A stretch of DNA of 64,000 bases from Fidelibacterota bacterium (GCA_002703375.1 NZTO01000049.1:38901-102900); one strand, 5' to 3'; counted from the first letter of the stretch, positions 16,124 through 63,940 are shown. The notes: generated from the letters alone by a model not told the origin. Numbers and translations are program-made.

Positions 16124-16285
16124 AATATGAAATCATTTGAAATAAATAATGGTATGGATCATAAACTATTTATAAAATATATTTAGATAAATCAAGTGCT
16201 AGAAAAAGAGCCACTAAAAACAGTGGCCGGCATAGACGTTCTAATAAAAAATTATAGTATTAGAATTACACAATTAATAAGTTAT

Positions 16286-17128: not shown

Positions 17129-17211
17129 AATATAAAGAAAAAATATAAAATACATAATTTAAATACGCATAATTAGTTTAAAAATAGTTAAATTAATATA
17201 TTTAAAAACCA

Positions 17212-18957: not shown

Positions 18958-18985
18958 ATATATAATAGTACTTGTAATTATATAT

Positions 18986-19276
18986 TTAAAAATCCGGCTC
19001 GTTGGTAAAGGCGTTTGGAATACCACTACCAACCTCTCCAACAGAATCGCCAAACATCGAAGATATTGAAGAAATATCACCCATTTGTGAAAGTACAAAC
19101 TGTGCTCCAGAGGCCGCGAATAAAACATATATACTTTCATTCGCCAAATTTTTGAAATTGATTTCCTCCTTTTTAATTAATTTACTTTCAAATATTTTTA
19201 TCGCTAAAAATACTAAAGAAATCAAAACACTACTCACTAAAAGTTCCTTCATTATTTTATTATCAATATAATACAT
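18986..19276 (-). CDS. small membrane protein (96 aa or shorter)
   Basis: It has an N-terminal TM helix (LLVSSVLISLVFLAI). I prefer it over the overlapping plus-strand ORF 19002..19271 because the whole surrounding block is minus-strand. Confidence 0.4.
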   Translation of the reverse strand: MYYIDNKIMKELLVSSVLISLVFLAIKIFESKLIKKEEINFKNLANESIYVLFAASGAQFVLSQMGDISSISSMFGDSVGEVGSGIPNAFTNEPDF

Positions 19277-19294
19277 TAATTTGTTTTTAACGAA

Positions 19295-46272: not shown

Positions 46273-46686
46273 TTAAATCTTTTCAATTATAATCCCCGCC
46301 ATTTCCATGATTTCCGGTATCAATTCATCGTTCTTATAATCTTCTATGTAGTAAATATTTTTTATTCCGGAAGCACACAATATCTTTGTGCAGTTAATGC
46401 AAGGATAATGCGTTATGTAAGCCTCTGCTTTGTCGCAACTAACACCGCGTTTGGCACAGTCTGTTATCGCATTTTGCTCGGCATGAATCGTGGCTTGTTC
46501 ATGATTGTTTCTAACAAAAGATTTATGGGGACATCCGGGAAGAAATCCATTATATCCCTGAGATATAATGCGGTTATCTTTTACAATAACACAACCCACT
46601 TTTAATCTCTCACACGGCGAACGTTTTGAAGTTACTAATACTATTTCCTTAAAATAATCTCTCCAACTTGGTCGTTTATTTTCCAT
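46273..46686 (-). CDS. dCMP (deoxycytidylate) deaminase
   Basis: N-terminal WRDYF, zinc motifs HAEQNAI and PCINCTKIL, and a size typical of ComEB/dCMP deaminases. Confidence 0.85.
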   Translation of the reverse strand: MENKRPSWRDYFKEIVLVTSKRSPCERLKVGCVIVKDNRIISQGYNGFLPGCPHKSFVRNNHEQATIHAEQNAITDCAKRGVSCDKAEAYITHYPCINCTKILCASGIKNIYYIEDYKNDELIPEIMEMAGIIIEKI

Positions 46687-47207
46687 TGTACATTAATCCT
46701 ACGTATTTTTTTAATTATTTTCTTACACTTAATTGTAATCGTATTTCTACAACAGCCGTATTCTGTTGCTATCTTATTTACCGGTATTTTATAAATATAA
46801 CGCTTCAAAATCAAATTCTTTTCAAATTCGGTTAATCCGCTTAAAAGATAATCATAGTTTTCAAAATCTTCTGTTATAATTAAATTTTCTTCTTTTAGTG
46901 GCAATGGTTTATTATACAGGGTTCTTATGTAGTCTCCCATATATTTTTTTATCCATCTACTACTATAAGTAGAAAATGCAAATCCCTTTGTTTCGTTATA
47001 TTTACGGGCCGCGTACAAAAGACCGATAGAACCCTCCTGAATCAACTCCTTTTTTTCATCGAGATTTAACCTATTTTTTATCATGTACGACCTAGCAAAG
47101 TAAGGAACCAATCGATAATTGTTTCTCGCATAACTCCTTATCATTTCCGGGGAATTATAACTTGATACAGAATATAATATACTTGATAAAATAATAAAAC
47201 GGTACAT
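46641..47207 (-). CDS. sigma-70 family RNA polymerase sigma factor (regions 2 and 4 only)
   Basis: NYRLVPYFARSY...ELIQEGSIGLLYAARKYNETKGFAFSTYSSRWIKKYM aligns residue-by-residue with RpoD region 2 (NLRLVISIAKKY...[37 protein letters not shown]). The C-terminal LTEFEKNLILKRYIYKIPVNKIATEYGCCRNTITIKCKKIIKKIRR matches the region 4 HTH layout. The first about 15 aa are hydrophobic. Confidence 0.85.
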   Translation of the reverse strand: MYRFIILSSILYSVSSYNSPEMIRSYARNNYRLVPYFARSYMIKNRLNLDEKKELIQEGSIGLLYAARKYNETKGFAFSTYSSRWIKKYMGDYIRTLYNKPLPLKEENLIITEDFENYDYLLSGLTEFEKNLILKRYIYKIPVNKIATEYGCCRNTITIKCKKIIKKIRRINVQWKINDQVGEIILRK

Positions 47208-47535: not shown

Positions 47536-48933
47536 TTATTTCCACGAAAAGAGACGATTTGTTTTTTTGCGTTTTTTCTTTCTACGCTTTTTTGTATTTG
47601 CATTATCGGGGTTAATTTCCTTTTTATCCTTTTTCACATCGGGAATATACTTTAAAAACCACTCTTCATATTCTCTTGTTCCCTTCTTATCCTTTAGTTT
47701 TTCAAACATATCCGATTTTTCCTGACGCATAGATTCTAAGGTGGGTTGTTCCCCATAGCAACTAATACTAAATCTTCTTAGTAATCCTTTTTGTTTTAAT
47801 CTATTTTTTTGTTGAACCTTAAATAAATATTGAGACATACAAAGTAATCTATCTGTGTCGTAGTATGGTCTATCCGCATAAATGAATGCCAAATAAAAAC
47901 TTAACATTGTATCTATAGTAGCAATTTTTAAAATCTGCCCTTGTATATTAATTATATTGTAACTGTGGCATCCTAATGGTTCATATACAAAAGCAACTGT
48001 ATCCTTACCAACTAAAATTTCGTAGTGAGGAGCAATAATCTCTCCAACTCCTTCATGTTTTACTATTTTAGTATTCATTATACCTCTATCATTTAATCTT
48101 TCTACTACAATAGTACATACTGTTAACGGTTCTAATGATAAAACATCAAAATCTGGGGAGTTTTGCAATTTTTTTCTTAGTTTTGATGGCATATATTTGG
48201 AATAAATGGTGTTTGCAAATCCCCCAAAAAATATAACCTCTTGATTAATAAATGTATCTTTTGTAATATTATATATGTCTACTTCTTTATTACTTTCTAA
48301 AGAAACGGTGGATTCCATGGAACGCTGAAAATTAACTTCATCGCATTTTTTATTTCTTATTGGATAATTTTTATTTAATAATAATAGACGTTTAAGAACC
48401 TTTTCCCATCTACTTACATCACCTTTTGGTCTTGATAATTCTAAATACATAGCCATTCTTAGAAAATTCGGGGGCGCATATAAAATACCATTCACGCTGA
48501 TAGAATCTTGTTTCACCTTTTTAAACAAATTTGGATCTAATGAAGTTATATCCGCAACGGGGATATAATTTACATATACTTTATAAGTTCCATGATGTAC
48601 ACCACTTTTTGCTTCCACGTCTGTAAAGCCTCTTTCATTATAAATGTTCGCGAGTTCTTTTGCATGATCTAAAGCCGTCGGGGAATAAAAATCATAATCG
48701 GGTATTTCAAGTGATTTATCATAGAATTGATCGGATTGTGGCAATATATTATTAATGGCTGTTCCGCCATAACAAACTAATTTCTTTTTTCTTAAAAATT
48801 CTTCAACCACGGCTATAATCTTTTTTACAATTGGTGCATTTGCTGACTTTCTATCACTTCTTTTTTCCGCTTTATCTACAGCACTTCTTAATATTTCTAA
48901 TTCTTTATCTTCATAATGTTTATCCTTATTCAT
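47536..48933 (-). CDS. nucleotidyltransferase, probable Mimiviridae-type poly(A) polymerase
   Basis: Pol-beta-like signature CYGGTAIN ... IPDYDFYS (hGG ... DxD). The size and basic tail match proteins annotated as poly(A) polymerase catalytic subunit in related viruses (recall only). Confidence 0.55.
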   Translation of the reverse strand: MNKDKHYEDKELEILRSAVDKAEKRSDRKSANAPIVKKIIAVVEEFLRKKKLVCYGGTAINNILPQSDQFYDKSLEIPDYDFYSPTALDHAKELANIYNERGFTDVEAKSGVHHGTYKVYVNYIPVADITSLDPNLFKKVKQDSISVNGILYAPPNFLRMAMYLELSRPKGDVSRWEKVLKRLLLLNKNYPIRNKKCDEVNFQRSMESTVSLESNKEVDIYNITKDTFINQEVIFFGGFANTIYSKYMPSKLRKKLQNSPDFDVLSLEPLTVCTIVVERLNDRGIMNTKIVKHEGVGEIIAPHYEILVGKDTVAFVYEPLGCHSYNIINIQGQILKIATIDTMLSFYLAFIYADRPYYDTDRLLCMSQYLFKVQQKNRLKQKGLLRRFSISCYGEQPTLESMRQEKSDMFEKLKDKKGTREYEEWFLKYIPDVKKDKKEINPDNANTKKRRKKKRKKTNRLFSWK

Positions 48934-50206: not shown

Positions 50207-52501
50207 ATGGCTGAACAGGAAGTTATGACCGTATTACACGAAGACCCGCAGGTTCTCGTAAAAGACGAATTTATTACAAAAAAAGAATGTGAACATATTA
50301 TTGATATTTGTAAGGATAAACTAAAAGATGCTTTGGTAAGTAACAATCAAAAAGGATTTGTTTCTGCTGGAAGAAGTGGTAAAAATTGCTGGCTTCAGCA
50401 CGATCACGATAATATTACGAAAAAAATCGCCGAAAGAATCGCAAAAATTGTTAATATTCCATTGTCTCATGCAGAAATTTATCAAGTTATTTATTATGAT
50501 GAAACCCAGGAGTATCGTTCGCATTATGATGGTTGGTTGCATAATAACTCTGAAAAAAGTAATCGCTGTATGAAATACGGCGGACAACGTGTTGCTACTG
50601 CATTATGTTATCTCAATGATGTCGAAGAAGGAGGATGTACCGGATTCCCGCGATTAAAAATAGAGGTTCCGCCAAAACAGGGCAAATTACTTATTTTCGA
50701 AAATATAATCAAAAATTCTGGAAAAGAAACAGGTAGAAGTGAAAGGCATCCTTTATCAGAACACGCCGGAAGACCGGTTATCAAGGGGAAAAAGTGGGCT
50801 TTTAATTTGTGGTTTCGTGAAAATCCCAAGACGGTTTTGTATGTTCCTCCAGAACTGCCTTCTAATGATGTTTCAAGTACAAAGGATACTAAAAATATAC
50901 AAGATGTAAATACCAAGAACGAATCTGGAAAAACTGAAAAGATTATACATCAAGAAGTAGTAACTACTTGCTCTGGATTAAATAAAGAGACTCTCAATCA
51001 AGAACACAAGATTTATACTCACAATGGAATTATGAACGATGGTGATATAGAAAAAGTTAAAAAACTTGCCAAACTAGAAAAAACTGAAAAACGTAATAGT
51101 TCATGGATTAAATTAACAGAAATTCCGGAGATTCTTTTGAAGATTGTAAATAGTACTGGGTATAATTATTCTTTTTATGAAAACGCAAATGTTGTACAGT
51201 ATGCTTCTTCTAATACACACAATCGATTTTTAGATGCATATGATTTTAATAGTGAAAACGGAAAGCGAAATACACAAAAGGTGGGTCAGCGATTGTATTC
51301 CATCGTATGTTTTCTAGATGATAAAATGACCTACAAATTTAATAAATTAGATATTATATATCAACCACAAAAGGGTAGTATTCTAAGTTATTGTAATACA
51401 TTAAACAATAGCAATGAGCGTTCCCTTGATATGTATCATGAAATTTCAAATGAAAATGAAAATGGGGCAATGTTATTTAATATCTACGTAAGAGAAAAGA
51501 ATACAAATGGAGAGATTTTTCCAAATCACTTTGAGAATGAAAATATTAAACTAATGATTGATGATAAGGCAACTACCGGTGAAGATATTATTGTAAAAGA
51601 TGTCATCCCTACTCCACCTCCCGTACCTTCATCTGCTCCTCCACCTACCTGTAAAAATATGGAAGATAAAAAAGAGGTTTGTGAAGAGCCCAAGAAACTT
51701 GTGGAATCCAAAGAATCCGCGGAACCTACCGAGCCCAAGGAACGACCAGAATATATGAAGGAACTTCTTGAAGTTTATGATAAGTTTAAAGATGGAACTA
51801 TAACCATGCGAGGACACAAAAGCATTAAATTTATCAACAAAATACCCTTTTCGATAGTTACGGAAAATGCAAACAAACTATTCGCTACCAGAGATGAAAA
51901 ATATGGAGCACTGAATCCAAAGGTTTTCGATAAAGAATACTATATTGACGAATTTACACCTCTTGTTATTGATAATGTTTACAATGAAGCCGCGCATTCA
52001 ATTATTAAAAATTATTTCCATTCTAACATTGATGCGGGTAACTTTGCTCTTGGTGATCGTCAAGCACACAGATACAAATCGAATAACGAATCCTTTTCTC
52101 GTCTTGTTCAGTATGAACTGTTACCATTGATTGAACATGTTGTTAAAAAACCCATGAACCCTACCTATATTTATGTATCTTGTTATACAAAAGATGAGGA
52201 GAAACCTACTGAATTACCACCACATACGGATAGACCAGATTGTGAATATACTATATCCTATATTATTGATAAACCAGAAGGTTCTAATTGGCCTATTTAT
52301 GTTGATAAGACGAAACAACCTGTAAAAAATAAAGGAAGATATTGGTTTTACCCACCAAAAGAAGGTTGTGTTGCAGTAGACGCAAATGCAAATAGTTTAA
52401 TGATGTTCAATGGGACAGACCATATTCACTATAGAGAAAAAATGGAATGTGATTATTATTATATCGTTCTTTTACATTTTAGAAGCGACGGATATGAATA
52501 A
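50207..52501 (+). CDS. multi-domain 2OG-Fe(II) oxygenase (N-terminal prolyl 4-hydroxylase domain plus two further 2OG-like domains)
   Basis: Domain 1: YRSHYDGW (HxD), SEHAG (second His), KGKKWAFNLWFRE (P4H alpha-like). Domain 2: similar layout, but NRFLDAYDF stands where HxD is expected. Domain 3: PPHTDRPD (HxD) and GTDHIHYRE. The Pro-rich linker is PTPPPVPSSAPPPT. Confidence 0.75.
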   Translation: MAEQEVMTVLHEDPQVLVKDEFITKKECEHIIDICKDKLKDALVSNNQKGFVSAGRSGKNCWLQHDHDNITKKIAERIAKIVNIPLSHAEIYQVIYYDETQEYRSHYDGWLHNNSEKSNRCMKYGGQRVATALCYLNDVEEGGCTGFPRLKIEVPPKQGKLLIFENIIKNSGKETGRSERHPLSEHAGRPVIKGKKWAFNLWFRENPKTVLYVPPELPSNDVSSTKDTKNIQDVNTKNESGKTEKIIHQEVVTTCSGLNKETLNQEHKIYTHNGIMNDGDIEKVKKLAKLEKTEKRNSSWIKLTEIPEILLKIVNSTGYNYSFYENANVVQYASSNTHNRFLDAYDFNSENGKRNTQKVGQRLYSIVCFLDDKMTYKFNKLDIIYQPQKGSILSYCNTLNNSNERSLDMYHEISNENENGAMLFNIYVREKNTNGEIFPNHFENENIKLMIDDKATTGEDIIVKDVIPTPPPVPSSAPPPTCKNMEDKKEVCEEPKKLVESKESAEPTEPKERPEYMKELLEVYDKFKDGTITMRGHKSIKFINKIPFSIVTENANKLFATRDEKYGALNPKVFDKEYYIDEFTPLVIDNVYNEAAHSIIKNYFHSNIDAGNFALGDRQAHRYKSNNESFSRLVQYELLPLIEHVVKKPMNPTYIYVSCYTKDEEKPTELPPHTDRPDCEYTISYIIDKPEGSNWPIYVDKTKQPVKNKGRYWFYPPKEGCVAVDANANSLMMFNGTDHIHYREKMECDYYYIVLLHFRSDGYE

Positions 52502-52552: not shown

Positions 52553-53500
52553 ATGTCCAATTTTACAATGAGTGACGGTTTTCTTCTAAAAGTTTTCAGC
52601 AATAAAAATTCTCGACTTTTCGAGGAAGCTGGAAACCACGTATTAAAAGAATTTTCTGGAAGCAAGGATCAAGTTGGTATCATCTATAACGATTTCAACG
52701 CTGATGCTAAGATGGTAGATTCATGGCAAAAAGAAACAAAGGGTATGAATGTTTATCATGTCGCCCCACGTTCAAAGACCCTTCGCATGGATGCCAAGGT
52801 TCTTTTTGCGAAAAAAATGAAAGATTCGCACTATGTACCCAAGACCTATTTCAGTTATGATGAAATCCCCAGCGACACTCCCGAAAACGCCCTTTTCTTT
52901 GTTAAGAAAAATGGCTCCACTGGTTCACGCGGAGTCGATATTCATCCCTACAGTGCAATGAAAGACCTTGACTACACGGAACGCGTGGTCCAAGAAAACA
53001 TGCCGACCCCAGATTTATATGACGACAAGAGATATAAGATTCGTGCGTATGTTGTTCTTCATGACAAGAATGTTTTCCTTTTCAACAAGTCATTCGCCAC
53101 TGTTGCTAGTGAGGATTTCAAGGATGCGATTGGTGATATGGATCAAGATGTTCTCCGCAAGATGCATGTTATTTTTCAAACTAGCGGAACCAAGTTCATT
53201 CTATCGGAGGAACTTGACAAATTTGAACAAATTCAACAAAATATGCTTGTGGCCTGCAAGGATTTCAAGAATGTATACAAGGATGAAATTAAGCGCATTG
53301 AGCCCAATGAGTTCGTAATACTTGGTTTTGATTTCGTTGTTGATGCGGATGGTAATGTTCAAATCATTGAAATTAACCACCGTTCTAACTACGCTCACCC
53401 TAAGCTTATGGAGAACAAGGTAGACGTTCCTTTGTTAAAGAATCTTTACAAGCTCCTTATTCAAGGTTCCAGTCTAGACACCGATTTCCGCAAGGTTTAG
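52553..53500 (+). CDS. tubulin-tyrosine-ligase-like (TTL) ATP-grasp enzyme
   Basis: FFVKKNGSTGSRGVDIH, RYKIRAYVVLHDKNVFLF and FVILGFDFVVDADGNVQIIEINHRSN follow the TTL/ATP-grasp motif order. The gene is visibly less AT-rich than its neighbours. Confidence 0.65.
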   Translation: MSNFTMSDGFLLKVFSNKNSRLFEEAGNHVLKEFSGSKDQVGIIYNDFNADAKMVDSWQKETKGMNVYHVAPRSKTLRMDAKVLFAKKMKDSHYVPKTYFSYDEIPSDTPENALFFVKKNGSTGSRGVDIHPYSAMKDLDYTERVVQENMPTPDLYDDKRYKIRAYVVLHDKNVFLFNKSFATVASEDFKDAIGDMDQDVLRKMHVIFQTSGTKFILSEELDKFEQIQQNMLVACKDFKNVYKDEIKRIEPNEFVILGFDFVVDADGNVQIIEINHRSNYAHPKLMENKVDVPLLKNLYKLLIQGSSLDTDFRKV

Positions 53501-54194: not shown

Positions 54195-54785
54195 ATGGCA
54201 GAAATTTCATTATTAGATATATCTCAAGACAATAAACCTATAAAACTCAATCTATCTCGCATTATTTCTTCGGGAACAATCATTTTATATATCTGGTCTT
54301 TGCCTTACTTGGCAAAGATTGGTTTCGCGGAAAAGGGCTCAACTAGCATATCCGAGTTTGTTTCAAACGCACATGCTACCGGAGCCATGGCTGTTTTATC
54401 CTTTACACCACTAACACTAATGTGGGAATATCAAGACATTCGAGTCGTGACTGTTTGCACTGAGAAAGGCAAAAGGGTGTTGTATTATACATTGGTTGCG
54501 TATCAATGGTTTTACGGGGGATTTTTAGTTTGCACCGTAAATTATGTCCCCTTATGGCTCCATATGCTAATGGTCGTTTCGTTTTGTATTTCATTTGTCA
54601 TTCATTCGATTATGACCATGAATTATACAAAACCAAGTAAATGTGGACAATATCAACTTATTGTTGGTATTTTATCCTGTGTCTGTATGCCCTTTTCCAA
54701 AGGACTATGGTTTTGGGTGTGCGAATGTGTGGGATTGTCTATGATTATGTTATTTACACCAACAGAAATATTACTAAACTATTAA
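54195..54785 (+). CDS. multi-pass membrane protein (196 aa)
   Basis: Five to six hydrophobic helices. No other motif. Confidence 0.55.
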   Translation: MAEISLLDISQDNKPIKLNLSRIISSGTIILYIWSLPYLAKIGFAEKGSTSISEFVSNAHATGAMAVLSFTPLTLMWEYQDIRVVTVCTEKGKRVLYYTLVAYQWFYGGFLVCTVNYVPLWLHMLMVVSFCISFVIHSIMTMNYTKPSKCGQYQLIVGILSCVCMPFSKGLWFWVCECVGLSMIMLFTPTEILLNY

Positions 54786-54824: not shown

Positions 54825-55658
54825 ATGGTTAAATTTGTGGATTGTTTTATATTTAATGATGAATTAGATTTGCTGGAATTTCGTTTTGAAGAACACGATT
54901 CTTTTACCGATCTTTTTATTTTGATAGAAAGTAAAAAAACCTTTAGCGGAAAACCCAAACCATTGTATGCGTCAGATAATATAGAAAGATTTGAACGATG
55001 GTCCCATAAACTAATCGTTTTGATAATAGATGAAAAACTTATTGAAAAAAAACATGGCTTTGGATTAGAGGAATTTAGTAGACATGTCGGTATTCAAAAA
55101 ATAAAACATCTTCTAGAAGAAAAAAAAATAGAACCAGACGATATTGTATCGGTTGTTAGTGACGTAGATGAAATATATGACGAAGATGAAATTATAAAAC
55201 TTAAAAAACCATCCGGAGAAGAAGGTGCTTTAAGTAATCCCATACGACCTCTTCTAAGATTTCACTATTATAGTTTAAAAATAGGGAGGCCATCAAATAT
55301 GAACTGGTGTCCACAAAAAAGACTAAAAATTATACGGGTTAAAGATCTAAAAGAATTTACTATAGAAGAAATACAACATAAAACTGGACCTCTTTTAGAC
55401 AAAGAAAAAATGGGGTGGCATCTTTCTTATTTTGGAGGTGTCGATATGGTAAGAAAGAAATTAAGTGAATTTTCACATTCGAGTATGAAAAGTGTACGCG
55501 AATGTATCGATAATCCAGAATTAATTCGTCAAAGAATTGAAAATAATGAAGATATATTGGGAAGAAATTGGGAGAAACTAGTTGTTATGGAACCCGAAAA
55601 AGTACCAAAAAGAATGGATCTGATTATTCTTTATCAACTTGATGCAATTTATATTTAA
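54825..55658 (+). CDS. glycosyltransferase family 17-like (bisecting GlcNAc-transferase-like)
   Basis: N-terminal CFIFNDELDLLEFRFEEHDSFTDLFILIESKKTFSGKPKPLY and later GWHLSYFGG are the hallmark GT17 blocks. Confidence 0.75.
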   Translation: MVKFVDCFIFNDELDLLEFRFEEHDSFTDLFILIESKKTFSGKPKPLYASDNIERFERWSHKLIVLIIDEKLIEKKHGFGLEEFSRHVGIQKIKHLLEEKKIEPDDIVSVVSDVDEIYDEDEIIKLKKPSGEEGALSNPIRPLLRFHYYSLKIGRPSNMNWCPQKRLKIIRVKDLKEFTIEEIQHKTGPLLDKEKMGWHLSYFGGVDMVRKKLSEFSHSSMKSVRECIDNPELIRQRIENNEDILGRNWEKLVVMEPEKVPKRMDLIILYQLDAIYI

Positions 55659-55664
55659 AATTGA
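55657..55664 (+). promoter_or_regulatory. AAAATTGA early-promoter-like box
   Basis: 31 nt upstream of ATG 55696. It overlaps the stop codon of the GT17 gene. Confidence 0.5.
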
Positions 55665-55695
55665 ACAAATAATTTTAAATATAAATTATATTTAA

Positions 55696-56109
55696 ATGGA
55701 AATACATCCAACTGCTAGACTTATTAAGCAATTAAACTTTAGAAGTTATCAACATATTACTTTCAAGAAAACCGATCAAGAAGATAAAAAACACATACAT
55801 TATGATAAATATGATAAATACGTTGAAAATTACGATAAGAGTAATCTACCGTACTTTATAGGTTATAGTTTTATCATATTTAAAAATGAATTCAATATGA
55901 AAACAGAAACCGCCGATACTATATTCATTGTAAAACTGAAAGCGGAAAAAATGCATCGATTTCCAAATACACAAAAAATCAAATTAAAAACCTTTAAAAA
56001 AAGCCCCGGTATTAATTTATATGAACCAAACTTTTTGTATTCTAAAAAAAATTATGAAAAACAAGACATCTTTGATATGTATTGTAATGGAGATTATTAT
56101 AAAATGTAA
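55696..56109 (+). CDS. hypothetical protein (137 aa)
   Basis: ATG ORF preceded by an AAAATTGA box 31 nt upstream. Confidence 0.5.
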   Translation: MEIHPTARLIKQLNFRSYQHITFKKTDQEDKKHIHYDKYDKYVENYDKSNLPYFIGYSFIIFKNEFNMKTETADTIFIVKLKAEKMHRFPNTQKIKLKTFKKSPGINLYEPNFLYSKKNYEKQDIFDMYCNGDYYKM

Positions 56110-56116
56110 TATATAT

Positions 56117-56617
56117 ATGAAAAAATTTATATTTGATTTAGATGATACACTATATTCCCCAATAGAACATGAAAGCAGAGATAAAGATTTCTATAAAAAT
56201 TTAAAAAAAGATAAGCGACTAACAGATTTACTTAAAAAAACAAAAGAAAATTACATATTTACAAATGGAAACAAATATCATATGGAGGAATGTATAAAAA
56301 GAATGAAATTGAAATCATTGTTTAAGGGATATAGTTATAGTGATCTTTTTAGAGGAAAATACAAACCCCATATTCTTCCATATATCATAACCTTAGAACG
56401 ATTTAAACTTAATAAAAACGATTTTATTTTTTATTTTGAAGACCTAGCCGACAATTTAAAAACAGGAAAAAAATTGGGGTGGATTACTATTTTCATAGAT
56501 CACGAAAATAAAATGCGCCAAAAACCTAAATATATAGACATGGTATTTAATAATATATATGATGCAATCGAAACATGTTTATCCCTAAAAATAAGTATAA
56601 CTAAGAATAGTAATTGA
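56117..56617 (+). CDS. HAD-superfamily hydrolase (pyrimidine 5-prime-nucleotidase/SDT1-like)
   Basis: Motif [11 protein letters not shown] at the N-terminus when started at ATG 56117 (the track ORF begins at 56021 and overlaps the previous gene). Also FTNGN (motif II), KP (motif III Lys) and FFEDLADN (motif IV). Confidence 0.7.
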
Positions 56618-57650
56618 AGTTAACATCACAATCACTTTCAACCATTTCTTTTATTAACATATTAAAATCGTATTTCGGTTTCCAGTTCAACAATGTTCTT
56701 GCCTTTGTAGAGTCCCCTAGTAATTCATCTACCTCAGCAGGCCTAAAATATTTATCAGATACGTATATTAATACTCTACCACTATTTTTATCAATACCTA
56801 CTTCGTTTAAACCTTCTCCATTCCATTCTATATCAATACCCTTCATTTTGAATGATTTTTCTATAAACTCACGAACCGAATGAAATTCATTTGTTGATAG
56901 TACAAAATCATCAGGAGTATCATGTTGTAGTATTTTCCACATTCCCTCCACATAATCTTTTGCGTGACCCCAATCCCGTTTTGCATCTAGATTTCCTACT
57001 ATTAAACGATCGCGCTCTCCTGTTAATATCATTCTTAAACCTCTAGTAATCTTTCTAGTAATAAATGTTGGACCTCTTCGAGAACTTTCATGATTAAATA
57101 GAATACCATTCGAGGCAAACATACCATATGCTTCGCGGTAATTTTTTGTTATCCAATATCCATACAGTTTAGCCACTCCATAAGGAGAACGCGGATGAAA
57201 TGGTGTGGTTTCCGTTTGTGGAACTTCTTGAACCATACCATACAACTCTGATGAAGATGCCTGATAAAATTTACACTTATCCGTTAAACCCGAACTTCTT
57301 ATTGCATCTAATAATCTTAATACTCCAACTCCGGTAGTATCTGCTGTATATTCTGGCATCTCAAAAGAAACCTTCACATGACTCATTGCTGCTAGATTAT
57401 ACACCTCTAGTAATTCAAATGATTCCTTCTGTTTTATCTCACACATAATATGTAATAAATTTGTACTATCCGATAAATCCCCGTATTTTAAAATTAAATT
57501 ATTATTTTCATATAAGTGCTCAATTCTTCTCGTATTGATATTTGATGTCCTTCTTATCAACCCCCAGACCTGATAATCTTTTTCTAATAAGAATTCTGTC
57601 AAATAAGAACCATCTTGACCGGTTATTCCTGTTATAAACGCTACTTTCAT
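56601..57650 (-). CDS. gmd: GDP-mannose 4,6-dehydratase
   Basis: [47 protein letters not shown], the catalytic region SSSELYG ... SPYGVAKLY, and NHESSRRG give full-length collinearity with GMD. Confidence 0.92.
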
Positions 57651-57690
57651 TTATATATAGATTATAATACTCGAAATATTTTTATATTAA

Positions 57691-57754
57691 ATATTAATTT
57701 ATCATATTAATTTATCATATTAATTTATCATATTAATTTATCATATTAATTTTA
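57691..57754. repeat. 13-nt AT-rich tandem repeat (atattaatttatc), about 4.9 copies
   Basis: Perfect copies start at 57691, 57704, 57717 and 57730, with a partial copy at 57743. The repeat spans the stop codon of the AAA ATPase gene and lies upstream of gmd. Confidence 0.9.
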
Positions 57755-58718
57755 TTTTTGAATTTAATTCAAATGTTACATGTAATCTTCCCTTTCTTAA
57801 ATAAGAGACATCAAGATTGTCTAATTCTCTTTTTGTTCTATTGCTACATAAAATAACAATCAAATTTGGATAAAGCCCCATATCTATTTTATCAAAAAAA
57901 AGATTCCAACTGGGTTTATCAGATATTTGAATAGGATACTTTTTATGTTTTAATATACGATTTTCATACACATTTTGAATAATGTTGTCTACCTCATCCA
58001 GCAAAATAATTAAAGGCTCATCATTTGTAGGTGCGATTTTCGAATATAAATTCGCAAGAGATTCACCAGGTTCCGTAGGATTAAACGAATCACAAAAACA
58101 AGCAGATAACGATTTCGCAAGTAAATAAGATAACATTGTCTTACCAGAGCCAGGCTTTCCATAAATAAAACACGTCAAAAATCCCTTTCTCTTGAAGTTC
58201 TCCGTAATTGAATTAGAAATCACTCTCTGTTCTTGTGTATACTCTTTATCTATAATAACTTTCCTTGACGTGTAAAAAAAATATTCATAATTACCACCTC
58301 GTGTATAATATTTGATTTCGTTATTTATTTTTTTTTCTTCAACGCTATGTGGTATATTTTTTTGTATTTTTACTGAATTAGATGCTGAAATCAACCTTTC
58401 TTTCACACTTTCTGTGCAAAATATAGACATTGTTCTTTCATAATCATCTCCATATACCCATATAATATATCTAGGAATCCACGCCTTATTGATAATTAAT
58501 CCAATTGGATTACCTTGTTCTGTATAACTAGAACAAAAATCACTTTTTATATTATTTGAGATATAATTCGCATTCTCTTCACTTTTCATGCGATACATAT
58601 TTATTTTTAATAAAATGGAAACTAAAAACATAACATATGGACCTGTTATATTAATAAAATTTTGTGACATAGATAAAACTCCCAAAATTATAGCAAATCC
58701 ATAGTTATTATCTAGCAT
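57741..58718 (-). CDS. AAA-family ATPase with N-terminal membrane anchor
   Basis: Walker A IYGKPGSGKTML, Walker B PLIILLDEVD, sensor-1 ILCSNR, and LRKGRLHV (Arg-finger region). Two N-terminal hydrophobic helices give a BCS1-like layout. Confidence 0.75.
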   Translation of the reverse strand: MLDNNYGFAIILGVLSMSQNFINITGPYVMFLVSILLKINMYRMKSEENANYISNNIKSDFCSSYTEQGNPIGLIINKAWIPRYIIWVYGDDYERTMSIFCTESVKERLISASNSVKIQKNIPHSVEEKKINNEIKYYTRGGNYEYFFYTSRKVIIDKEYTQEQRVISNSITENFKRKGFLTCFIYGKPGSGKTMLSYLLAKSLSACFCDSFNPTEPGESLANLYSKIAPTNDEPLIILLDEVDNIIQNVYENRILKHKKYPIQISDKPSWNLFFDKIDMGLYPNLIVILCSNRTKRELDNLDVSYLRKGRLHVTFELNSKIKLI

Positions 58719-58820
58719 AATGTAATATTATTCTAATACAATTATTTAAATAGATTTTAAATAATAAATAATGAAACTTTTGTTCTTTCCAGATTTTTGC
58801 CACTTCATAAATTGGTATCA

Positions 58821-59453
58821 TCAAGTATTACAGCCAAATACATATTTTCCCCAACTCATACCTCGTCCCTTATCAAAATCTTCTCTTCCTTCTTCGATTA
58901 CCTCATTTTTCTCCAAAGCATCACTCCAAACCTTCGTTGGATACTCATTCCAATACCTTTTAAGGCTATCCGAATAACACGTATCATCAAATAAAACAAT
59001 CGTATTCTCGTGTGCTAATTTTTTACAATTTTCCAAATCTAATTTTGGAATTGGTTCCCAATGTGCACCATCTATAAATATTAAATCAAATTTTTTATCA
59101 GGATTTCGCTTAATATAATTTGGAATACTCCACTCACTTTCCCCAATTACTATATTTAATCTATCGGGATAATTGTAATCCAAATATCTTTTACCAAATC
59201 GTAAATTATTTCTTATAATTGAAAAACTATGCACATTATTTTCAGGCTTTGCTTTTAAAAATACCTCTGCAGAATGACCACAATTAAACCCAATCTCCAT
59301 TATATTTGTAATCTCAGGCTGTGATGCATAGTGCTTCAATATTTCAACCTGTCTTCCCATCTGTTGACAAAATCCCTCTATCGGCTTTATATCATAATGG
59401 TCTAAAAATTCATCCAATGTGGGAAAATCGTACCTATTCATAACTATATTCAT
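58821..59453 (-). CDS. class I SAM-dependent methyltransferase
   Basis: Motif I-like IMEIGFNCGHSAEVF and FDLIFIDGAHW, typical of the O-methyltransferase / Methyltransf_24-like group. Confidence 0.6.
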   Translation of the reverse strand: MNIVMNRYDFPTLDEFLDHYDIKPIEGFCQQMGRQVEILKHYASQPEITNIMEIGFNCGHSAEVFLKAKPENNVHSFSIIRNNLRFGKRYLDYNYPDRLNIVIGESEWSIPNYIKRNPDKKFDLIFIDGAHWEPIPKLDLENCKKLAHENTIVLFDDTCYSDSLKRYWNEYPTKVWSDALEKNEVIEEGREDFDKGRGMSWGKYVFGCNT

Positions 59454-59511
59454 TTATACATTACTATTCACCCTTTTTTAAAATACTTTTTACAAGATAG
59501 TTTAGAATGTA

Positions 59512-60438
59512 TTAAGAACGATAATTGATTAAAAGATCTTTATTTTCGCGCTTACAATACTGATACATTCCCGTCCTATATTCTCCATATTTATCGTAAT
59601 CATATATATGAAACTGTATATCATTTATCATAAGGTCCTGTTTCTTCTTAAATAAAGTCTTTGTCCACCAGTTCATGGTTGCATTTAATCGATTAAAAAA
59701 ATAAGAAGGAACATAAACGTTCTTTATAGTATCGCTTAGTTGTATTACAAAAGGACAGAGAGATGACTGACATGGAACATAATGCTTTGCTCCAATTAAA
59801 TAATCAAAATCCTTCTTGAAATTGTAACCATTTTTCTTTGTTCTACCATCATTCAACCACTGAATTGCATTGTATTTCTCTACTAAAATTGGAAATAAAG
59901 GATTCATTGGATCCCTTTCTGTTATTACATAAATATCATTCCATGAACCGGATTCAATTACTTTTTCATAAAATTCTAAGGGTGGTTGTATCATTTCAGG
60001 GTTGCCACCAACCATAATATCACCGCTTCTTAAATGGATCAATAAATCTTTATCTCCAAGAATTTTAGGCGATATTTTCATGATGGGCTTTATATATTTT
60101 TGAACATATGTAATACGTTCCTTAAAATCCAAACCTATTTGTCTATATAATCTATCCAAAGATAATTGAATTATTTCCTTATTTTCATTTTCATTTTCAT
60201 TTTCATTTTCATTTTTATTTTTATTTTCATTTTTATGTTGTTCATTTATTTTTATTACAAATTCCTTGAAAAAATCATTGAGTAAAGTTTTATTTATTTC
60301 TGGAGAAGAAGACCAATGAATACAAGAAAAATCTAATTGTTCCATTTTACGTTTCTCTGCCAATAAAATACCATTTAATAAACAAATAATAAAATTACCA
60401 GTTCGACCACAACCTTTAATTAGTTTTAATTCTTTCAT
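59512..60438 (-). CDS. putative fucosyltransferase-superfamily glycosyltransferase
   Basis: N-terminal GCGRTGNFIICLLNGILLA (GRxGN box) and LIHLRSGD (HxRxGD box) are the two motifs shared by the GT11/23/65/68 fucosyltransferases. It also contains an (NE)n low-complexity insert. Confidence 0.45.
   Translation of the reverse strand: MKELKLIKGCGRTGNFIICLLNGILLAEKRKMEQLDFSCIHWSSSPEINKTLLNDFFKEFVIKINEQHKNENKNKNENENENENENKEIIQLSLDRLYRQIGLDFKERITYVQKYIKPIMKISPKILGDKDLLIHLRSGDIMVGGNPEMIQPPLEFYEKVIESGSWNDIYVITERDPMNPLFPILVEKYNAIQWLNDGRTKKNGYNFKKDFDYLIGAKHYVPCQSSLCPFVIQLSDTIKNVYVPSYFFNRLNATMNWWTKTLFKKKQDLMINDIQFHIYDYDKYGEYRTGMYQYCKRENKDLLINYRS
60181..60246. repeat. hexanucleotide repeat (attttc/attttt)n, coding
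   Basis: attttc x5, then attttt/attttc variants. On the minus strand it encodes NENKNKNENENENENENK in ORF 59512..60438. Confidence 0.85.
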
Positions 60439-60460
60439 TTATATATTATTCCTTATATAA

Positions 60461-61750
60461 ATGGAACATACTAACGATTTATCTTGTTGTGATACAAAAT
60501 CAGAAGTTGAGAACAAAAAAGAAGCCCTAGATATTGTAAAATCAATCTCTGAAAATATGGGTGAAACCGTGATAACCAACTTATCTAAAACTAAAGATAC
60601 CACAGTAACAGAAGAAGATGACAAAATGAAAACAGATGCTGAAATAAAAGAACTGTCCTCTCTTTTTAATAAAGAACCAACAACAAAATCACAATCTCAT
60701 AGAAAACAGGTTTTATCTAAAAAAATAAATCCAAAGGTTAATACTTTACTTGCTAAAAAACCAAAGCCGGTACCTCAACATAAACCATTGCCAATTCATA
60801 GATCAAATACTGATTCATCTAAAAATTTACCACCTCCTCCACCTAAAGGTGACGCCCCTAAACTTGAATTCGACCCAAATAAAAAAACTTCCAAACCAGT
60901 TCTAAAAAAGTTACCCACAACTACTATACAAAAACCCCAGGGAAAAAAAGAATTAGTCTTTGTTCTTAGAGGTCACATTCGTGACGCCTTTGATGATAAC
61001 TCTAAAATTAAAGATTTTGTAAAATTATTAAGCCAAAAATATAATATTGTCATCTATGTTCACACGTGGAACAAAAAAGAATGCAAAAAAACGTGGAGAC
61101 ATGAAGCCTCTATGTACAGTTGGAAAAAAACACCTGAAGAATTAAAGGTTACTAAGGATACTGTAATGGAATATTTTAGTGATTTTAAACATCTCATCAA
61201 AAAAATCTCTCTGGAAGATGAAGAACTTGTTAAACTAAATGGTCGCACTGAAGGACAACTTACTAAAATATGCACCATGCCAACAAAAAGTTGGAAATAC
61301 TTTGTTCATAACTTATATACCAGTCTAACCGAAATATTACCTGAAGACCGTCACAAAACTATATTCTCTTTGCGACTAGATATGATTCAAACCCGACTCT
61401 TCAGCACCTGGCATGGATTTAATCACGATAATATGCTTGATTCATTCTTTAAAATATGCTGCAGTTATATAGACCGTTCCAATCTAAAATACAAATGGTG
61501 CAAAATGCAATCTATCGGTGGAAGCAGTTCCGGGTATGATAATGCCCTCTTAGGAGAATTTGACTACCTCGAAAGAATATTCCATCTTCTTGAAATGAAA
61601 TTGGATGATGTTCTTGTAAAATGCGCAGAACAATGCGACAGCAGAAACCAAGAAATTTTTGTGGAGAGATTGAGAGATAAACTTATTCATAATATCAACT
61701 ATTTTAACTTCATTTTTACCGGGGAACAGCCCCCAAAATTAAAATCATAG
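60461..61750 (+). CDS. hypothetical protein with Lys/Pro-rich N-terminal region (429 aa)
   Basis: Long ORF diverging from the putative glycosyltransferase. The C-terminal 260 aa look globular (VFVLRGHIRDAFDD...IYVHTWNKKE) but I cannot assign them. Confidence 0.55.
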   Translation: MEHTNDLSCCDTKSEVENKKEALDIVKSISENMGETVITNLSKTKDTTVTEEDDKMKTDAEIKELSSLFNKEPTTKSQSHRKQVLSKKINPKVNTLLAKKPKPVPQHKPLPIHRSNTDSSKNLPPPPPKGDAPKLEFDPNKKTSKPVLKKLPTTTIQKPQGKKELVFVLRGHIRDAFDDNSKIKDFVKLLSQKYNIVIYVHTWNKKECKKTWRHEASMYSWKKTPEELKVTKDTVMEYFSDFKHLIKKISLEDEELVKLNGRTEGQLTKICTMPTKSWKYFVHNLYTSLTEILPEDRHKTIFSLRLDMIQTRLFSTWHGFNHDNMLDSFFKICCSYIDRSNLKYKWCKMQSIGGSSSGYDNALLGEFDYLERIFHLLEMKLDDVLVKCAEQCDSRNQEIFVERLRDKLIHNINYFNFIFTGEQPPKLKS

Positions 61751-61846: not shown

Positions 61847-63940
61847 ATGCGTTTTGAAGAAGGAGGAGGAAGAAAAAAAGAATGGGAGTGTACATTAAAA
61901 AATAATAAACCTATGTATGTAAATGCTAAAAAAGGTATAGAACATCCTATATTTTTAAATAAAAAATTACGACCAACCTATAGAAACAAAAATGGTATCG
62001 TAATGGAAGCAAAAGATTGCCCACAAGAATATAATGCATTATTAAAGAGTGAATCAAAAAAGACTCTGAAAACAAATCAATTGACCCTAAAAAGTAATCG
62101 ATTGGAAAATATGGTTAAAAAAACATTGGAAAAAAAAATAGTATTAAATAAAAAATCGCCATCACTGACACTATCTCAAAAGAAAACATCTCTGCCTAAA
62201 CCTAATAAACTTATTATTGGCGAGTATATTGATAAACTCAAAAAGGGTGAACCATTACCCAGAAATAAAACGGTAAAAAAACTTACAAAATTTTGCAAAC
62301 TTGCAAGTAAAAAAAACGCATTTGTATATACCACAAAAGAAGTTATAAAGCCAACCAAAAAACCCAAGACTCCTACACCTACTAAGACAAAGAGCCCTAC
62401 AATGAATCCAAATGCAAAGACATTTATACCACAAGTGAAAATTCCCACGCCTAAATCCAAGAATCCTACTCCCAAAGCAAAAACCTCCAAGCTTCGCAAT
62501 TCTTTCTTTGGTAGTCCTCCTAAAGCAAAAATACCCGCGCCTAAACCTAAAACACAATCACCAGTCTCACAAGTTAAACAACCTTGTGGAAACGGTAAAC
62601 GATGTAAAAAAGGTACAAAATGTAATAAAAAAACAGGTTTCTGCATACCTATGGGTTCAAATAAAACTGCAAAGAAAACGCAACCAGTAACAAAGCGTGT
62701 AAGTGACAGCTTGCAAATCATGCAATATCAAGAAGAAGAGTTAAAAGAACTTGGATTAAAAAAAAACGACTTCTATGAGGATGTCTGCCTTGTATTAAAA
62801 AATATACGCAAAAAACTGCATACCCCAGGAGAAAAACAAAAAGAGGAAGAATGGTCGAGTAATAAATTAGTAAAAATGCATGACTTAGTGCCTCATACAC
62901 GAGATAAAAAAGGAAAATTAATTAAAGGAAATAACGTTCATCGAGAACAATATTTAGGTGATAAAGAAATTAAATTTACACATATTTTAGGGAAGGGTGG
63001 ATATGGTAGAATTCATGGAGGAACCTACGGTGGTAGACCATGTGCTATCAAAGAATCTCTCGATTCTATGGATAGTCGTATAGATATAGAGGATTATTAT
63101 GGTGAAATTATAAAACAAAATGAATTATTTTGTCAAGCCCATCGTGCTAAATTAAATCAACCTAAATATGCTAAGATACCTAAACCCTTATTCATTGCAA
63201 ATATGGATAAAACTCCACTACTTGGCATGGAACCCTTAGACGATTCCTTATATAATTTTATTAAAAAATCAAAAGCTCCTTCTACAATAAAAGAGGATAT
63301 CATTACACATAAGCGAAAGATGACAAAGGTCATTACTGATATGTTTGAATGTATATGTAATACCCTTATTTATCTTCAAGAAAAATATGATTTTTATCAT
63401 AGAGATATGCACTGCGGAAACATTATGTATCGCAAAAGCGGTGAGACTTACCAATGGTTTTTAATTGATTTTGGAATGTCGACATTTAAATTGCACGATT
63501 ATAGATTCAGTAATGATGGAGCTGGGCCTTATGGTAAATTCAATAGTGAATTAATAAAAACTGGTTATGGGAAAGGTCGAAAAGGACATGACTTGCGATT
63601 AACCCTTTTATTTATGTTTGAATTGATAGAAGACAACCTTGATAAAATGATACTACCAGAAGCGTTCAATATTTTAAATGCTATATATATTAAAATAAAA
63701 AATGATATTCGAAAGAATTCTATAGGTAACAGTCCTGTATTCTGGCATCGTGGTTATAAAGATGCATTTAATAATCTTATTACCAGAGAAACCGAGCCAA
63801 AGGTATTTCTAGCAGAAACAATACCACAACTTCGGCAGATCATTTTGAACAACCGTAATCCCGCTATTTCTTTAAAATCAAAAAACAAACCGAAAAAAGA
63901 ATTTATATTTGTTGAAAGAAAAGAAGGTAAAAAAAAATAG
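61847..63940 (+). CDS. serine/threonine protein kinase with Lys/Pro-rich repeat N-terminus
   Basis: Gly-loop LGKGGYGRIHGG, AIKES (VAIK Lys), HRDMHCGNIMY (HRD/N), LIDFGMS (DFG). N-terminal PTPK/PKxK repeats and the small Cys knot CGNGKRCKKGTKCNKKTGFC. Confidence 0.85.
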   Translation: MRFEEGGGRKKEWECTLKNNKPMYVNAKKGIEHPIFLNKKLRPTYRNKNGIVMEAKDCPQEYNALLKSESKKTLKTNQLTLKSNRLENMVKKTLEKKIVLNKKSPSLTLSQKKTSLPKPNKLIIGEYIDKLKKGEPLPRNKTVKKLTKFCKLASKKNAFVYTTKEVIKPTKKPKTPTPTKTKSPTMNPNAKTFIPQVKIPTPKSKNPTPKAKTSKLRNSFFGSPPKAKIPAPKPKTQSPVSQVKQPCGNGKRCKKGTKCNKKTGFCIPMGSNKTAKKTQPVTKRVSDSLQIMQYQEEELKELGLKKNDFYEDVCLVLKNIRKKLHTPGEKQKEEEWSSNKLVKMHDLVPHTRDKKGKLIKGNNVHREQYLGDKEIKFTHILGKGGYGRIHGGTYGGRPCAIKESLDSMDSRIDIEDYYGEIIKQNELFCQAHRAKLNQPKYAKIPKPLFIANMDKTPLLGMEPLDDSLYNFIKKSKAPSTIKEDIITHKRKMTKVITDMFECICNTLIYLQEKYDFYHRDMHCGNIMYRKSGETYQWFLIDFGMSTFKLHDYRFSNDGAGPYGKFNSELIKTGYGKGRKGHDLRLTLLFMFELIEDNLDKMILPEAFNILNAIYIKIKNDIRKNSIGNSPVFWHRGYKDAFNNLITRETEPKVFLAETIPQLRQIILNNRNPAISLKSKNKPKKEFIFVERKEGKKK

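Follow-up and report, generated by a model that had tools for sequence, protein, structure and literature searches.

A probable glycosylation island in a marine mimivirus-like giant virus

The gene block and its viral setting

We have analyzed a stretch of DNA of 64,000 nucleotides (here called the window) from an assembly deposited under the name Fidelibacterota bacterium (GCA_002703375.1, NZTO01000049.1:38901-102900). A preliminary description had pointed to a cluster of glycan-synthesis genes between positions 54,825 and 61,750. The cluster comprises genes for a glycosyltransferase (GT) of family GT17, a conserved protein of 137 aa, a HAD phosphatase, GDP-mannose 4,6-dehydratase (GMD), an AAA+ ATPase, an O-methyltransferase, and proteins of 308 and 429 aa that resemble transferases in their predicted structures. 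All the open reading frames (ORFs) previously listed are present at the coordinates given for them. They are not chance features, being long, giving significant family matches and being kept in many metagenomic contigs. We estimate a probability of about 0.7 that these genes form part of a glycosylation island of a marine mimivirus-like virus that encodes its own soluble glycan-building enzymes, acting in the manner proposed below.

The window is AT-rich, with a GC content of ~27-39% and about 30% overall. A family scan of its ORFs identified the major capsid protein (MCP) of the nucleocytoplasmic large DNA viruses (NCLDV) at 11680..13251 (minus strand), VLTF3 at 13627..14760 (plus strand), an A32-type packaging ATPase at 16286..17155 (minus strand) and the catalytic subunit of a mimivirus-type poly(A) polymerase at 47536..48933 (minus strand). 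A P9 minor capsid protein and an Rpb3/11-like RNA polymerase subunit are also encoded, and the mimivirus-associated families DUF5832, DUF5764 and DUF7197 are found among the window proteins. The presence of these NCLDV hallmark genes bears out the earlier suggestion that the glycan cluster is encoded by a virus.

In an exact-sequence look-up all ten proteins of the locus proved identical to the GenBank entries MAP67456.1-MAP67465.1 (locus tags CMF80_07150-07195), for which the source is given as a Tara Oceans metagenome-assembled genome (MAG) of 'Candidatus Marinimicrobia bacterium'. Because the contig carries MCP, VLTF3, A32 and the mimivirus-type poly(A) polymerase this label is wrong for the contig, which is a giant virus mis-binned into a bacterial MAG. 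Users of the 'Marinimicrobia' genome are affected by this. Given the hallmark gene set, the virus is most likely a marine relative of the mimiviruses, of the order Imitervirales. If the locus were bacterial, and part of an O-antigen or capsule cluster of Candidatus Marinimicrobia, the GenBank names of MAP67456-MAP67465 would be explained, and clusters of GMD, GT and methyltransferase genes are typical of bacterial O-antigen loci. We give this virtually no credence, however, as it is already refuted by the hallmark genes; MCP, VLTF3, A32, P9, the poly(A) polymerase and the Rpb3/11-like subunit all lie on the same contig. In addition the GC content is ~30%, and the GMD has the human enzyme as its closest solved relative. 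Moreover GT17, along with GT47, GT90, GT92 and the tubulin-tyrosine-ligase (TTL) family, occurs chiefly in eukaryotes and the viruses that infect them.

Glycosyltransferases and a candidate sugar methyltransferase

The first gene of the cluster (54825..55658, plus strand) encodes a protein of 277 aa. It matches PF04724 with E = 1.2e-22 (81 bits, compared with a cutoff of 26), aligning residues 3-245 with positions 74-298 of the 348 in the model, and its description as GT17-like was therefore sound. An acidic SDVDEI sequence is seen in the translation and GDLDEV in a homolog on the viral contig L077, both candidates for the catalytic DxD motif. The viral protein shares its Pfam domain with the beta-1,4-N-acetylglucosaminyltransferase GnT-III (MGAT3) and contains an acidic DVD sequence. 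GnT-III is a type II protein of Golgi membranes, whereas the window protein lacks a membrane anchor and is only 277 aa in length. A eukaryotic N-glycan core is very unlikely to be its acceptor. The gene is kept in contigs L001-L003, from the nearest relatives of the virus, where it lies next to that for glutamine:fructose-6-phosphate amidotransferase (GFAT). This adjacency fits a donor of the UDP-GlcNAc type. GT17 genes are also annotated in some chloroviruses and in the haptophyte virus CpV-BQ1; to our knowledge the activity of a viral GT17 protein has never been assayed.

The 308-aa protein (59512..60438, minus strand) had been taken for a fucosyltransferase (FucT) on the strength of two motifs. 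Both are present, GRTGN at residues 11-15 and HLRSGD at 135-140, and they are invariant or nearly so across 19 homologs. Within the family alignment G11, R12, N15, R137, S138, G139 and D140 are invariant, and P152-P153, E174 and a QSSLCP block are further conserved. In fucosyltransferases GxGN, the donor-binding arginine of HxR(R/x)GD and SxS(T/S)F-type motifs have been assigned functional roles. A search of 5.8 billion proteins returned 23 relatives, all of which are metagenomic and unannotated. No genuine match to a sequence in the PDB was obtained, either with the single sequence (phmmer) or with a profile of the family; an apparent match to PHO4 was rejected as a low-complexity artefact of an (NE)n insert. 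This insert is encoded by a hexanucleotide repeat detected by Tandem Repeats Finder (TRF) at 60179..60256, and its length differs between strains, giving proteins of 296, 306 and 308 aa.

We have therefore relied on a model of the 308-aa protein generated by AlphaFold2 (AF2) from the family alignment. It has a mean pLDDT of 87.9 and pTM of 0.87, and the only part of low confidence is the (NE)n insert (residues 67-84). The predicted structure has the fold of a GT with two Rossmann domains, and fucosyltransferases are its nearest structural neighbors. In a Foldseek search of the PDB the seven best matches are POFUT1 (GT65) and NodZ (GT23), followed by FUT8 and the heptosyltransferases of GT9. 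The signal is much stronger against predicted viral structures (BFVD). There the best match is an uncharacterised Megaviridae protein (E = 6e-8), and the best that is annotated is a phage 'Glycosyl transferase family 11' (E = 4.9e-7, TM-scores 0.52/0.62). Other annotated matches are two Fut1_Fut2_like proteins, an alpha-1,2-fucosyltransferase of Bodo saltans virus (E = 6.5e-6) and a fucosyltransferase of a Synechococcus phage.

A bridge at the level of sequence is provided by a protein of 317 aa on contig L077, which passes the Pfam threshold for GT11. It is related to the 308-aa protein with E = 7.6e-6 by phmmer against a small database, and with E = 7e-4 by hhalign, where QSSLCPF is aligned with SNSSFSFF. 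The 308-aa protein resembles the alpha-1,2-fucosyltransferases of GT11 (FUT1/FUT2 and the bacterial FutC/WbsJ, PF01531), GT23 (NodZ and FUT8) and GT65 (POFUT1), to which its predicted fold is closest, in its N-terminal GxGN loop, its HxRxGD with invariant arginine and its length of ~300 aa. A C-terminal SS-x-x-P/F motif aligns with the SNSSFSF of the Pfam-validated viral GT11. It differs in having HLRSGD where the usual GT11-type motif is HxRRGDY. By sequence profile (PF01531 or related models) it is not a member of GT11. The earlier assignment thus held for the predicted fold and through the GT11 bridge, and failed at the level of sequence profiles. We conclude that the protein belongs to the fucosyltransferase superfamily as a divergent member, with GT11 as the closest family, and it will be referred to as FucT-like.

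The 429-aa protein is encoded divergently from the FucT-like protein at 60461..61750 (plus strand), a pairing that is also found in L001-L003. As described previously it is rich in lysine and proline; the N-terminal 160 residues contain 17.5% K, 10.6% P and 10.6% T. This Lys/Pro/Thr-rich region (60461..60931) is probably disordered, and among homologs it is of low complexity, variable in length and poorly conserved. It precedes a conserved C-terminal domain of ~270 residues (60932..61750). A profile search of 1.8 billion cluster representatives with this domain found 429 proteins at E <= 1e-3 and 360 at E <= 1e-10, many of which have multiple domains. In ten such examples the fusion partners include GT61, Galactosyl_T (GT31), DUF3431, Mannosyl_trans3 and GT41 domains. 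Those members of the family that we sampled are all metagenomic 'hypothetical proteins'. The signature shared by 152 diverse copies consists of RGH(I)R, TW, YF, WK, RxD, GxDN and LD, with D307, D360 and D382 conserved at 94-98%.

The AF2 model of this domain is of medium quality, with pLDDT = 74 and pTM = 0.78. Its top three fold matches in the PDB are the C-terminal domains of KCC3 transporters. Among the remaining matches the recurring class of enzyme is that of GT-A glycosyltransferases, namely glycogenin, COLGALT1 (probability 0.99), LgtC, MGAT2 and GtrB. The protein had been left unassigned; the domain fusions and the GT-A-like fold matches suggest that it is itself a transferase. We think it reasonably probable that the C-terminal domain belongs to an unnamed family of transferase modules that modify glycans, most plausibly weakly GT-A-like in structure, and phospho-sugar or other transferase chemistry may also be considered. 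A possible Rosetta-stone fusion of this domain with one bearing FucT-like motifs (P0113) counts as no more than a hint, as hhalign aligned the two only over the HLRxSD region with a non-significant E = 0.07.

A GT assignment by sequence profile had been anticipated for both the FucT-like and the 429-aa proteins. Neither Pfam nor NCBIfam provides one for any member of the two families, and because of this both assignments rest on predicted structure and genomic context.

The methyltransferase gene (58821..59453, minus strand) encodes 210 aa. Its assignment as a SAM methyltransferase is upheld by PF13578 (E = 2e-12, 48.4 bits with a cutoff of 26.3), and PF01596 is just exceeded (22.3 against 22). 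The closest relatives in the PDB are catechol O-methyltransferases (E = 1e-4), and 159 homologs carry the name 'predicted O-methyltransferase YrrM', so that we class it as a class I cation-dependent O-methyltransferase of the COMT/YrrM type. The match to the sugar O-methyltransferase NanM is below threshold (20.2 bits, with a cutoff of 44). A metagenomic fragment (P0375) joins an NTP_transferase domain to a methyltransferase domain of the window type. Identification by name with A061L of the chlorovirus PBCV-1 was rejected, since the list of homologs contains only YrrM-type names. The protein is a candidate sugar O-methyltransferase.

GMD and the supply of a deoxyhexose donor

GMD is encoded at 56601..57650 (minus strand; 349 aa). 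It was correctly named, scoring 529 bits with TIGR01472 over its full length, above the equivalog cutoff of 415, and E = 6e-140 with PF16363 over positions 1-332 of 332. The closest solved relative is human GMD (6gpj, 458 bits). The translation contains GITGQDG (residues 8-14), ASSSELYG, SPYGVAKLY and NHESSRRG; the NADP-binding and catalytic motifs are intact, and the enzyme looks functional. Within the superfamily of short-chain dehydrogenases/reductases (SDR) GxxGxxG forms the NADP(H) site, and S/T-E...YxxxK provides the catalytic residues.

To yield a deoxyhexose donor the GMD product requires a second step, such as that of the epimerase/reductase GMER. It had been noted that no GMER is visible in the window, and we found neither a GMER nor a second SDR there using phmmer with GMD, a scan for Rossmann motifs and a hidden Markov model (HMM) for GMER. 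The last was built from SDR genes abutting GMD in viral loci, one seed being a GDP-L-fucose synthase (384 bits to the human enzyme). We rejected the idea that a lone GMD is unusual. GMD has at least 596 confirmed matches in viral contigs, with up to 77% identity in giant-virus MAGs. GMER lies within 8 kb of it in 47 of 80 viral loci, and in only 17 of the 45 closest loci, which are mostly of giant viruses; at least nine of these have full flanks without it. Since many of the closest loci have no GMER nearby, a lone GMD is normal for such viruses. As suggested earlier, the second step could fall to GMD itself if it is bifunctional, to the product of a viral gene at a distance or to a host enzyme. 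Bifunctionality cannot be read from the sequence; the GMD of PBCV-1 has an NADPH-dependent 4-reductase activity that is absent from that of ATCV-1, with 53% identity (PMC9614988).

A fusion of an aldo-keto reductase (AKR; E = 7e-45) with a PhyH-type dioxygenase (E = 7e-15), of 589 aa, is encoded ~4.5 kb past the end of the window (14381..16150, minus strand, on L004, part of the parent contig). Conceivably it serves as a ketoreductase for sugar nucleotides; nothing tested supports this.

The place of GMD in the module calls for a correction to the preliminary description. In the closest relatives, L001-L003 (~60% identity), the 429-aa homolog is divergent from the FucT-like gene, followed by the methyltransferase, AAA and HAD genes, then a homolog of the 137-aa protein (133 aa) and finally GT17 and GFAT. 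This order is collinear with that of the window, with PHO4-like, GFO_IDH_MocA and PAP2-like genes inserted, and there is no GMD. GMD is a lineage-specific addition and not part of the core of the module, because it is absent from the block in these relatives. The junction at which it is found in the window, and missing from L001-L003, coincides exactly with a tandem repeat. This is a perfect 13-bp repeat (57691..57752; TRF score 124, 100% matches) with unit ATATTAATTTATC in 4.8 copies. It runs through the final codons of the AAA gene and the spacer that separates this gene from GMD, on the upstream side of GMD. On the minus strand TGATAAATTAATA is present in four exact copies, and exact copies occur nowhere else. 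The repeat could be a promoter element or a scar of insertion. At its 3' end GMD overlaps the HAD gene by 17 bp.

These observations bring in a different possibility, that the FucT-like, 429-aa and methyltransferase proteins form a module with a donor unrelated to GMD, and that GMD was recently inserted in this lineage for some other purpose, perhaps to raise the host pool of GDP-fucose or GDP-rhamnose, or to feed one of the GTs further downstream. The perfect repeat and the 17-bp overlap fit an insertion, and L001-L003 retain the 429-aa homolog, FucT-like, methyltransferase, AAA and HAD genes with no GMD between the last two. The nucleotide-sugar genes near the block in these contigs are NeuB, DegT, GFAT and GFO_IDH_MocA, and more distant members of the FucT-like family adjoin UDP-GlcNAc 2-epimerase or GT47/Nucleotid_trans genes. 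Yet the structural neighbors of the 308-aa protein are specifically fucosyltransferases, and two other viral contigs (L077 and L084) couple GT11 and GT17 directly to GMD and GMER. The contigs of the relatives are also short (13-38 kb), so GMD could sit elsewhere in those genomes. On balance we regard an insertion unrelated to the module as rather unlikely.

The arrangement in L077 and L084 is GMD, GMER, SDR, SDR, GT17, GT11, DUF3431, radical SAM and methyltransferase, in this order on one strand. The GT17 there matches PF04724 with E = 1e-21, and DUF3431 is also one of the fusion partners of the domain found in the 429-aa protein. These contigs are unrelated to the window lineage. They repeat the combination of GMD, GT17, a GT11-like enzyme and a methyltransferase, accompanied by GMER, and so support the view that the island is a deoxyhexose glycan module.

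Extent of the island and the glycan it might build

The cluster is real, but it does not end at 61,750 as first described; the island continues beyond the end of the window. On the 138-kb parent contig (L004) the genes downstream are, in order, a 290-aa unannotated protein, a GT47 of RXYLT1 type, the AKR-PhyH fusion, a D12 DNA methyltransferase, a GIY-YIG nuclease, GT92, GT90 and aconitase. Six GT-like genes together with GMD and the methyltransferase thus lie within ~20 kb, from 54.8 kb to ~10 kb past the window end, and no such glycogenes were found among the 39 other window ORFs that were scanned. The glycosylation island is ~17-25 kb long. In addition, GFAT is encoded directly upstream of the window start (8131..9954, plus strand, on L091); in L001 it is found at 18200..20125, adjoining GT17, and that locus also has sugar genes of the NeuB, DegT and GFO_IDH_MocA types. 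Distant members of the FucT-like family adjoin a giant DUF5672+GT47 protein and a Nucleotid_trans gene, and others are near UDP-GlcNAc 2-epimerase and a GT2-like gene. The family is consistently associated with glycan genes, and is not tied to GMD.

Several start codons of the cluster share a sequence context, TAAATG ('TATATAA-ATG'), which resembles the TAAATG initiator of poxvirus late promoters. It is found at 12 of the 56 genes, compared with 4.3% of all ATGs, and at five of the eight cluster genes against seven of the 48 others (Fisher p = 0.008); the starts include 55696, 57650 (minus), 59453 (minus), 60438 (minus) and 60461. This hints at shared regulation. The early-promoter octamer of mimivirus, AAAATTGA, is not enriched in the window (11 observed, ~20 expected).

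The common start context bears on whether there is one pathway at all. The locus might instead be a variable region that gathers unrelated auxiliary genes, whose conservation is simply the collinearity of close viruses. HAD, AAA, a kinase-like protein, the D12 methyltransferase, GIY-YIG and aconitase are indeed interspersed with the GT genes, which lie on both strands, and the relatives differ by insertions of PHO4, PAP2, GFO_IDH_MocA and GMD. We consider this highly improbable given four features that count against it. Glycogenes are strongly concentrated here relative to the rest of the window, the GT17, GT11, GMD and methyltransferase combination recurs in an unrelated contig, domain fusions connect the 429-type domain with other GTs, and the TAAATG context is shared.

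In the scheme that we favor, GMD would convert host GDP-mannose into GDP-4-keto-6-deoxymannose. The donor would then be finished by a reductase encoded outside the ~84 kb surveyed, whether host GMER/FX or the product of a distant viral gene, or by an intrinsic 4-reductase activity of GMD like that of PBCV-1. GDP-L-fucose is the likeliest outcome, and failing that GDP-D-rhamnose. The 6-deoxyhexose could be transferred by the GT11-like enzyme, with other residues added by the GT17-like and 429-aa proteins. The former probably adds a beta-linked N-acetylhexosamine, supplied via GFAT of the virus itself. The remainder of the glycan might be built by the downstream GT47, GT92 and GT90 enzymes, and capping of a sugar hydroxyl is a possible task for the methyltransferase, a part played in PBCV-1 by A061L. 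If chloroviruses and mimiviruses are a guide, surface proteins of the virion would be the most likely carriers of the finished glycan. The locus has the nucleotide-sugar enzymes GMD and GFAT and several GTs, as expected for a system independent of the endoplasmic reticulum (ER) and Golgi. There is no transmembrane (TM) segment in the GT17-like, FucT-like or 429-aa proteins, and because they are soluble these enzymes could work independently of the ER and Golgi.

A number of observations weigh against this scheme. No GMER or RMD is encoded in the window or the 10 kb on either side (~84 kb in total), and in the nearest relatives the syntenic block lacks GMD. Synteny among viruses of ~60% identity may reflect only their relatedness. 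The donor need not be the product of GMD, because distant members of the FucT-like family adjoin other sugar genes. The 308-aa protein and 18 homologs have no Pfam match even at E = 10, and none in NCBIfam, and its fold matches in the PDB are weak (best E = 3e-3, probability up to 0.98, TM-score ~0.4). The 429-aa protein has no match to Pfam, NCBIfam or PDB sequences. The fold neighbors of its C-terminal domain are also weak, with E ~1e-2 from the model of pLDDT 74, and a canonical DxD is absent from the 152 copies.

A more far-reaching interpretation combines four elements. The two proteins without profiles may found new GT families widely used by marine giant viruses. The domain with the RGHIR/TW/WK/RxD/GxDN signature may represent a new type of transferase that works independently of metal, perhaps one for phospho-sugars. 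The lone GMD may lead to a 6-deoxyhexose other than fucose, such as D-rhamnose via an intrinsic reductase activity. Lastly the sugar may receive an O-methyl group and be joined to viral proteins that are rich in Pro/Lys and hydroxylated, as is suggested by a prolyl-4-hydroxylase (P4H)-like oxygenase encoded at 50207..52501 and by PAPK-like tracts in the 429-aa protein and a neighboring 697-aa protein. We think it unlikely that all four are correct together, if less so than the reading as a variable region.

The oxygenase gene (plus strand) is situated upstream of the island at a distance of 2 kb. Its product of 764 aa has a 2-oxoglutarate-Fe(II) oxygenase domain of the P4H type (PF13640, E = 1e-13), and an apparent second HxD...H oxygenase module at its C-terminus. 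The Pro/Lys-rich tracts (e.g. IPAPKPK and PTPKSKNPTPKAK) fall at 60461..60931 and 61847..62750 in the 429-aa and 697-aa proteins respectively, and we take them to resemble the (PAPK)n substrates of the prolyl hydroxylase of PBCV-1. Glycosylation linked to hydroxyproline may be envisaged.

The closest parallel is with PBCV-1, whose glycan machinery includes the GMD A118R, the GMER A295L, A111/114R with a FucT domain, A064R, A061L and the exostosin-type GT A075L (PMC9614988). The window virus also encodes GMD, GFAT and several soluble GTs that include FucT-type and exostosin/GT47-type enzymes. Its small (~210 aa) class I O-methyltransferase can be compared in size and class with A061L, a protein of 209 aa that methylates O-3 of rhamnose (PMC9614988). 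Every class of component has a chlorovirus precedent (GMD, FucT domain, exostosin-type GT, sugar O-methyltransferase, GFAT and GT17), and the locus is therefore a known type of system. There are also differences. The window virus is mimivirus-like and not of the Algavirales, with no GMER within ~84 kb; its transferases have single domains and are not fusions of three; sequence profiles fail to recognise the FucT-like and 429-aa enzymes; and the virus, which is uncultured, is represented solely by metagenomic sequence.

The fibril clusters of Mimivirus and the Megavirinae yield rare sugars of the amino and deoxy kinds in UDP-linked form (among them viosamine, rhamnose and bacillosamine) that are not derived from GDP-mannose. 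We know of no GMD or FucT-type enzymes described in these clusters. Those viruses are of the same broad lineage as the window virus, and clade-specific clusters of nucleotide-sugar enzymes and GTs have been described for them (PMC10117803).

A glycan cluster with GMD in a giant virus is already well established as a concept. The modest novelty here lies in a GT11-like clade invisible to sequence profiles and a large unnamed family of transferase-like domains, and likewise in the first outline of a glycosylation island for this lineage of marine viruses and the recognition of its taxonomic mislabel. The glycans of giant viruses have been resolved only in chloroviruses and in a small number of mimivirids that infect amoebae, and a review of 2022 described glycosylation as unexamined in the marine, alga-infecting relatives of mimivirus (PMC9614988). 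An abundant Tara Oceans lineage carries a dense and largely soluble glycosylation toolkit. The GT11-like clade and the domain family of 429 representatives are two cloneable targets missed by current profiles, and their characterization would improve the annotation of glycogenes across giant-virus metagenomes.

Several neighbors are conserved without a demonstrated link to the pathway, namely the HAD, AAA, 137-aa and 196-aa proteins. For the HAD protein (plus strand) the most likely start is 56117, giving 56117..56617 within an ORF of 56021..56617, because the members of its cluster have 166-176 aa. This gives 166 aa with the motif I sequence FDLDDT at the N-terminus, and removes an apparent overlap with the 137-aa ORF. 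The HAD-IA assignment stands (PF13419 E = 2.7e-7; TIGR01509 29.5, just above the cutoff of 29.4). Its best named family is the pyrimidine 5'-nucleotidase TIGR01993, below threshold (59.7 compared with 142.9) and hence short of equivalog level, and in the PDB it is closest to SSM1/Sdt1 of yeast and to a putative nucleotide phosphatase (E = 2e-7). In sequence it resembles nucleotide phosphatases and not sugar-phosphate enzymes. The role in the pathway that had been implied for it is not supported, because the route from GDP-mannose to a GDP-6-deoxyhexose contains no reaction of this kind.

The AAA+ ATPase (57741..58718, minus strand; 325 aa) was rightly identified as a membrane-anchored protein, having a single AAA module (PF00004, E = 1.1e-8) and one TM-like segment at residues 21-40; no tie to the pathway emerged. 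As conserved neighbors it and the HAD protein might play a supporting part, although none is indicated. By its PDB relatives the module is of the generic Cdc48/p97 type. The gene follows that for the methyltransferase in L001-L003, and on contig L027 a GMER-GMD pair lies directly beside a homolog of it (E = 7e-43). An asparagine synthase adjoins this AAA/GMD/GMER group on L027, and the window also encodes an asparagine synthase (29903..31489, minus strand), as well as a papain-family cysteine protease (10260..11243, plus strand) and a ClpP-like protease (29117..29872, minus strand).

The 137-aa protein (55696..56109, plus strand) has no match in Pfam or NCBIfam, and is 45% identical to the 133-aa protein encoded at the syntenic position of L001. 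The multi-pass membrane protein of 196 aa immediately upstream of GT17 (54195..54785, plus strand) was described accurately, with TM-like segments at residues 110-144 and 155-189; its membership of the module is uncertain. It has a sole family match, TMEM260-like and below threshold (19.6 bits, with a cutoff of 24.2), and it was rejected as the counterpart of the PAP2-like gene that occupies the syntenic site in L001, as there is no similarity. The 697-aa protein (61847..63940, plus strand) has a Lys/Pro-rich N-terminus and a kinase-like C-terminus, with weak ABC1 and PK_Tyr_Ser-Thr matches. It splits the island into two halves and is probably not a glycan enzyme.

Between the oxygenase gene and the island is that for a tubulin-tyrosine-ligase-like ATP-grasp protein (52553..53500, plus strand; PF03133, E = 1.6e-12). 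Elsewhere in the window there is a protein of the class II aldolase/adducin family (7323..7934, minus strand; PF00596, E = 2e-20), a family that includes L-fuculose-phosphate aldolase. Finally, a protein of 188 aa (46641..47207, minus strand) matches region 2 of bacterial sigma-70 (PF04542, E = 2e-11), with a weak match to region 4. A sigma-factor-like gene is unexpected for a giant virus.

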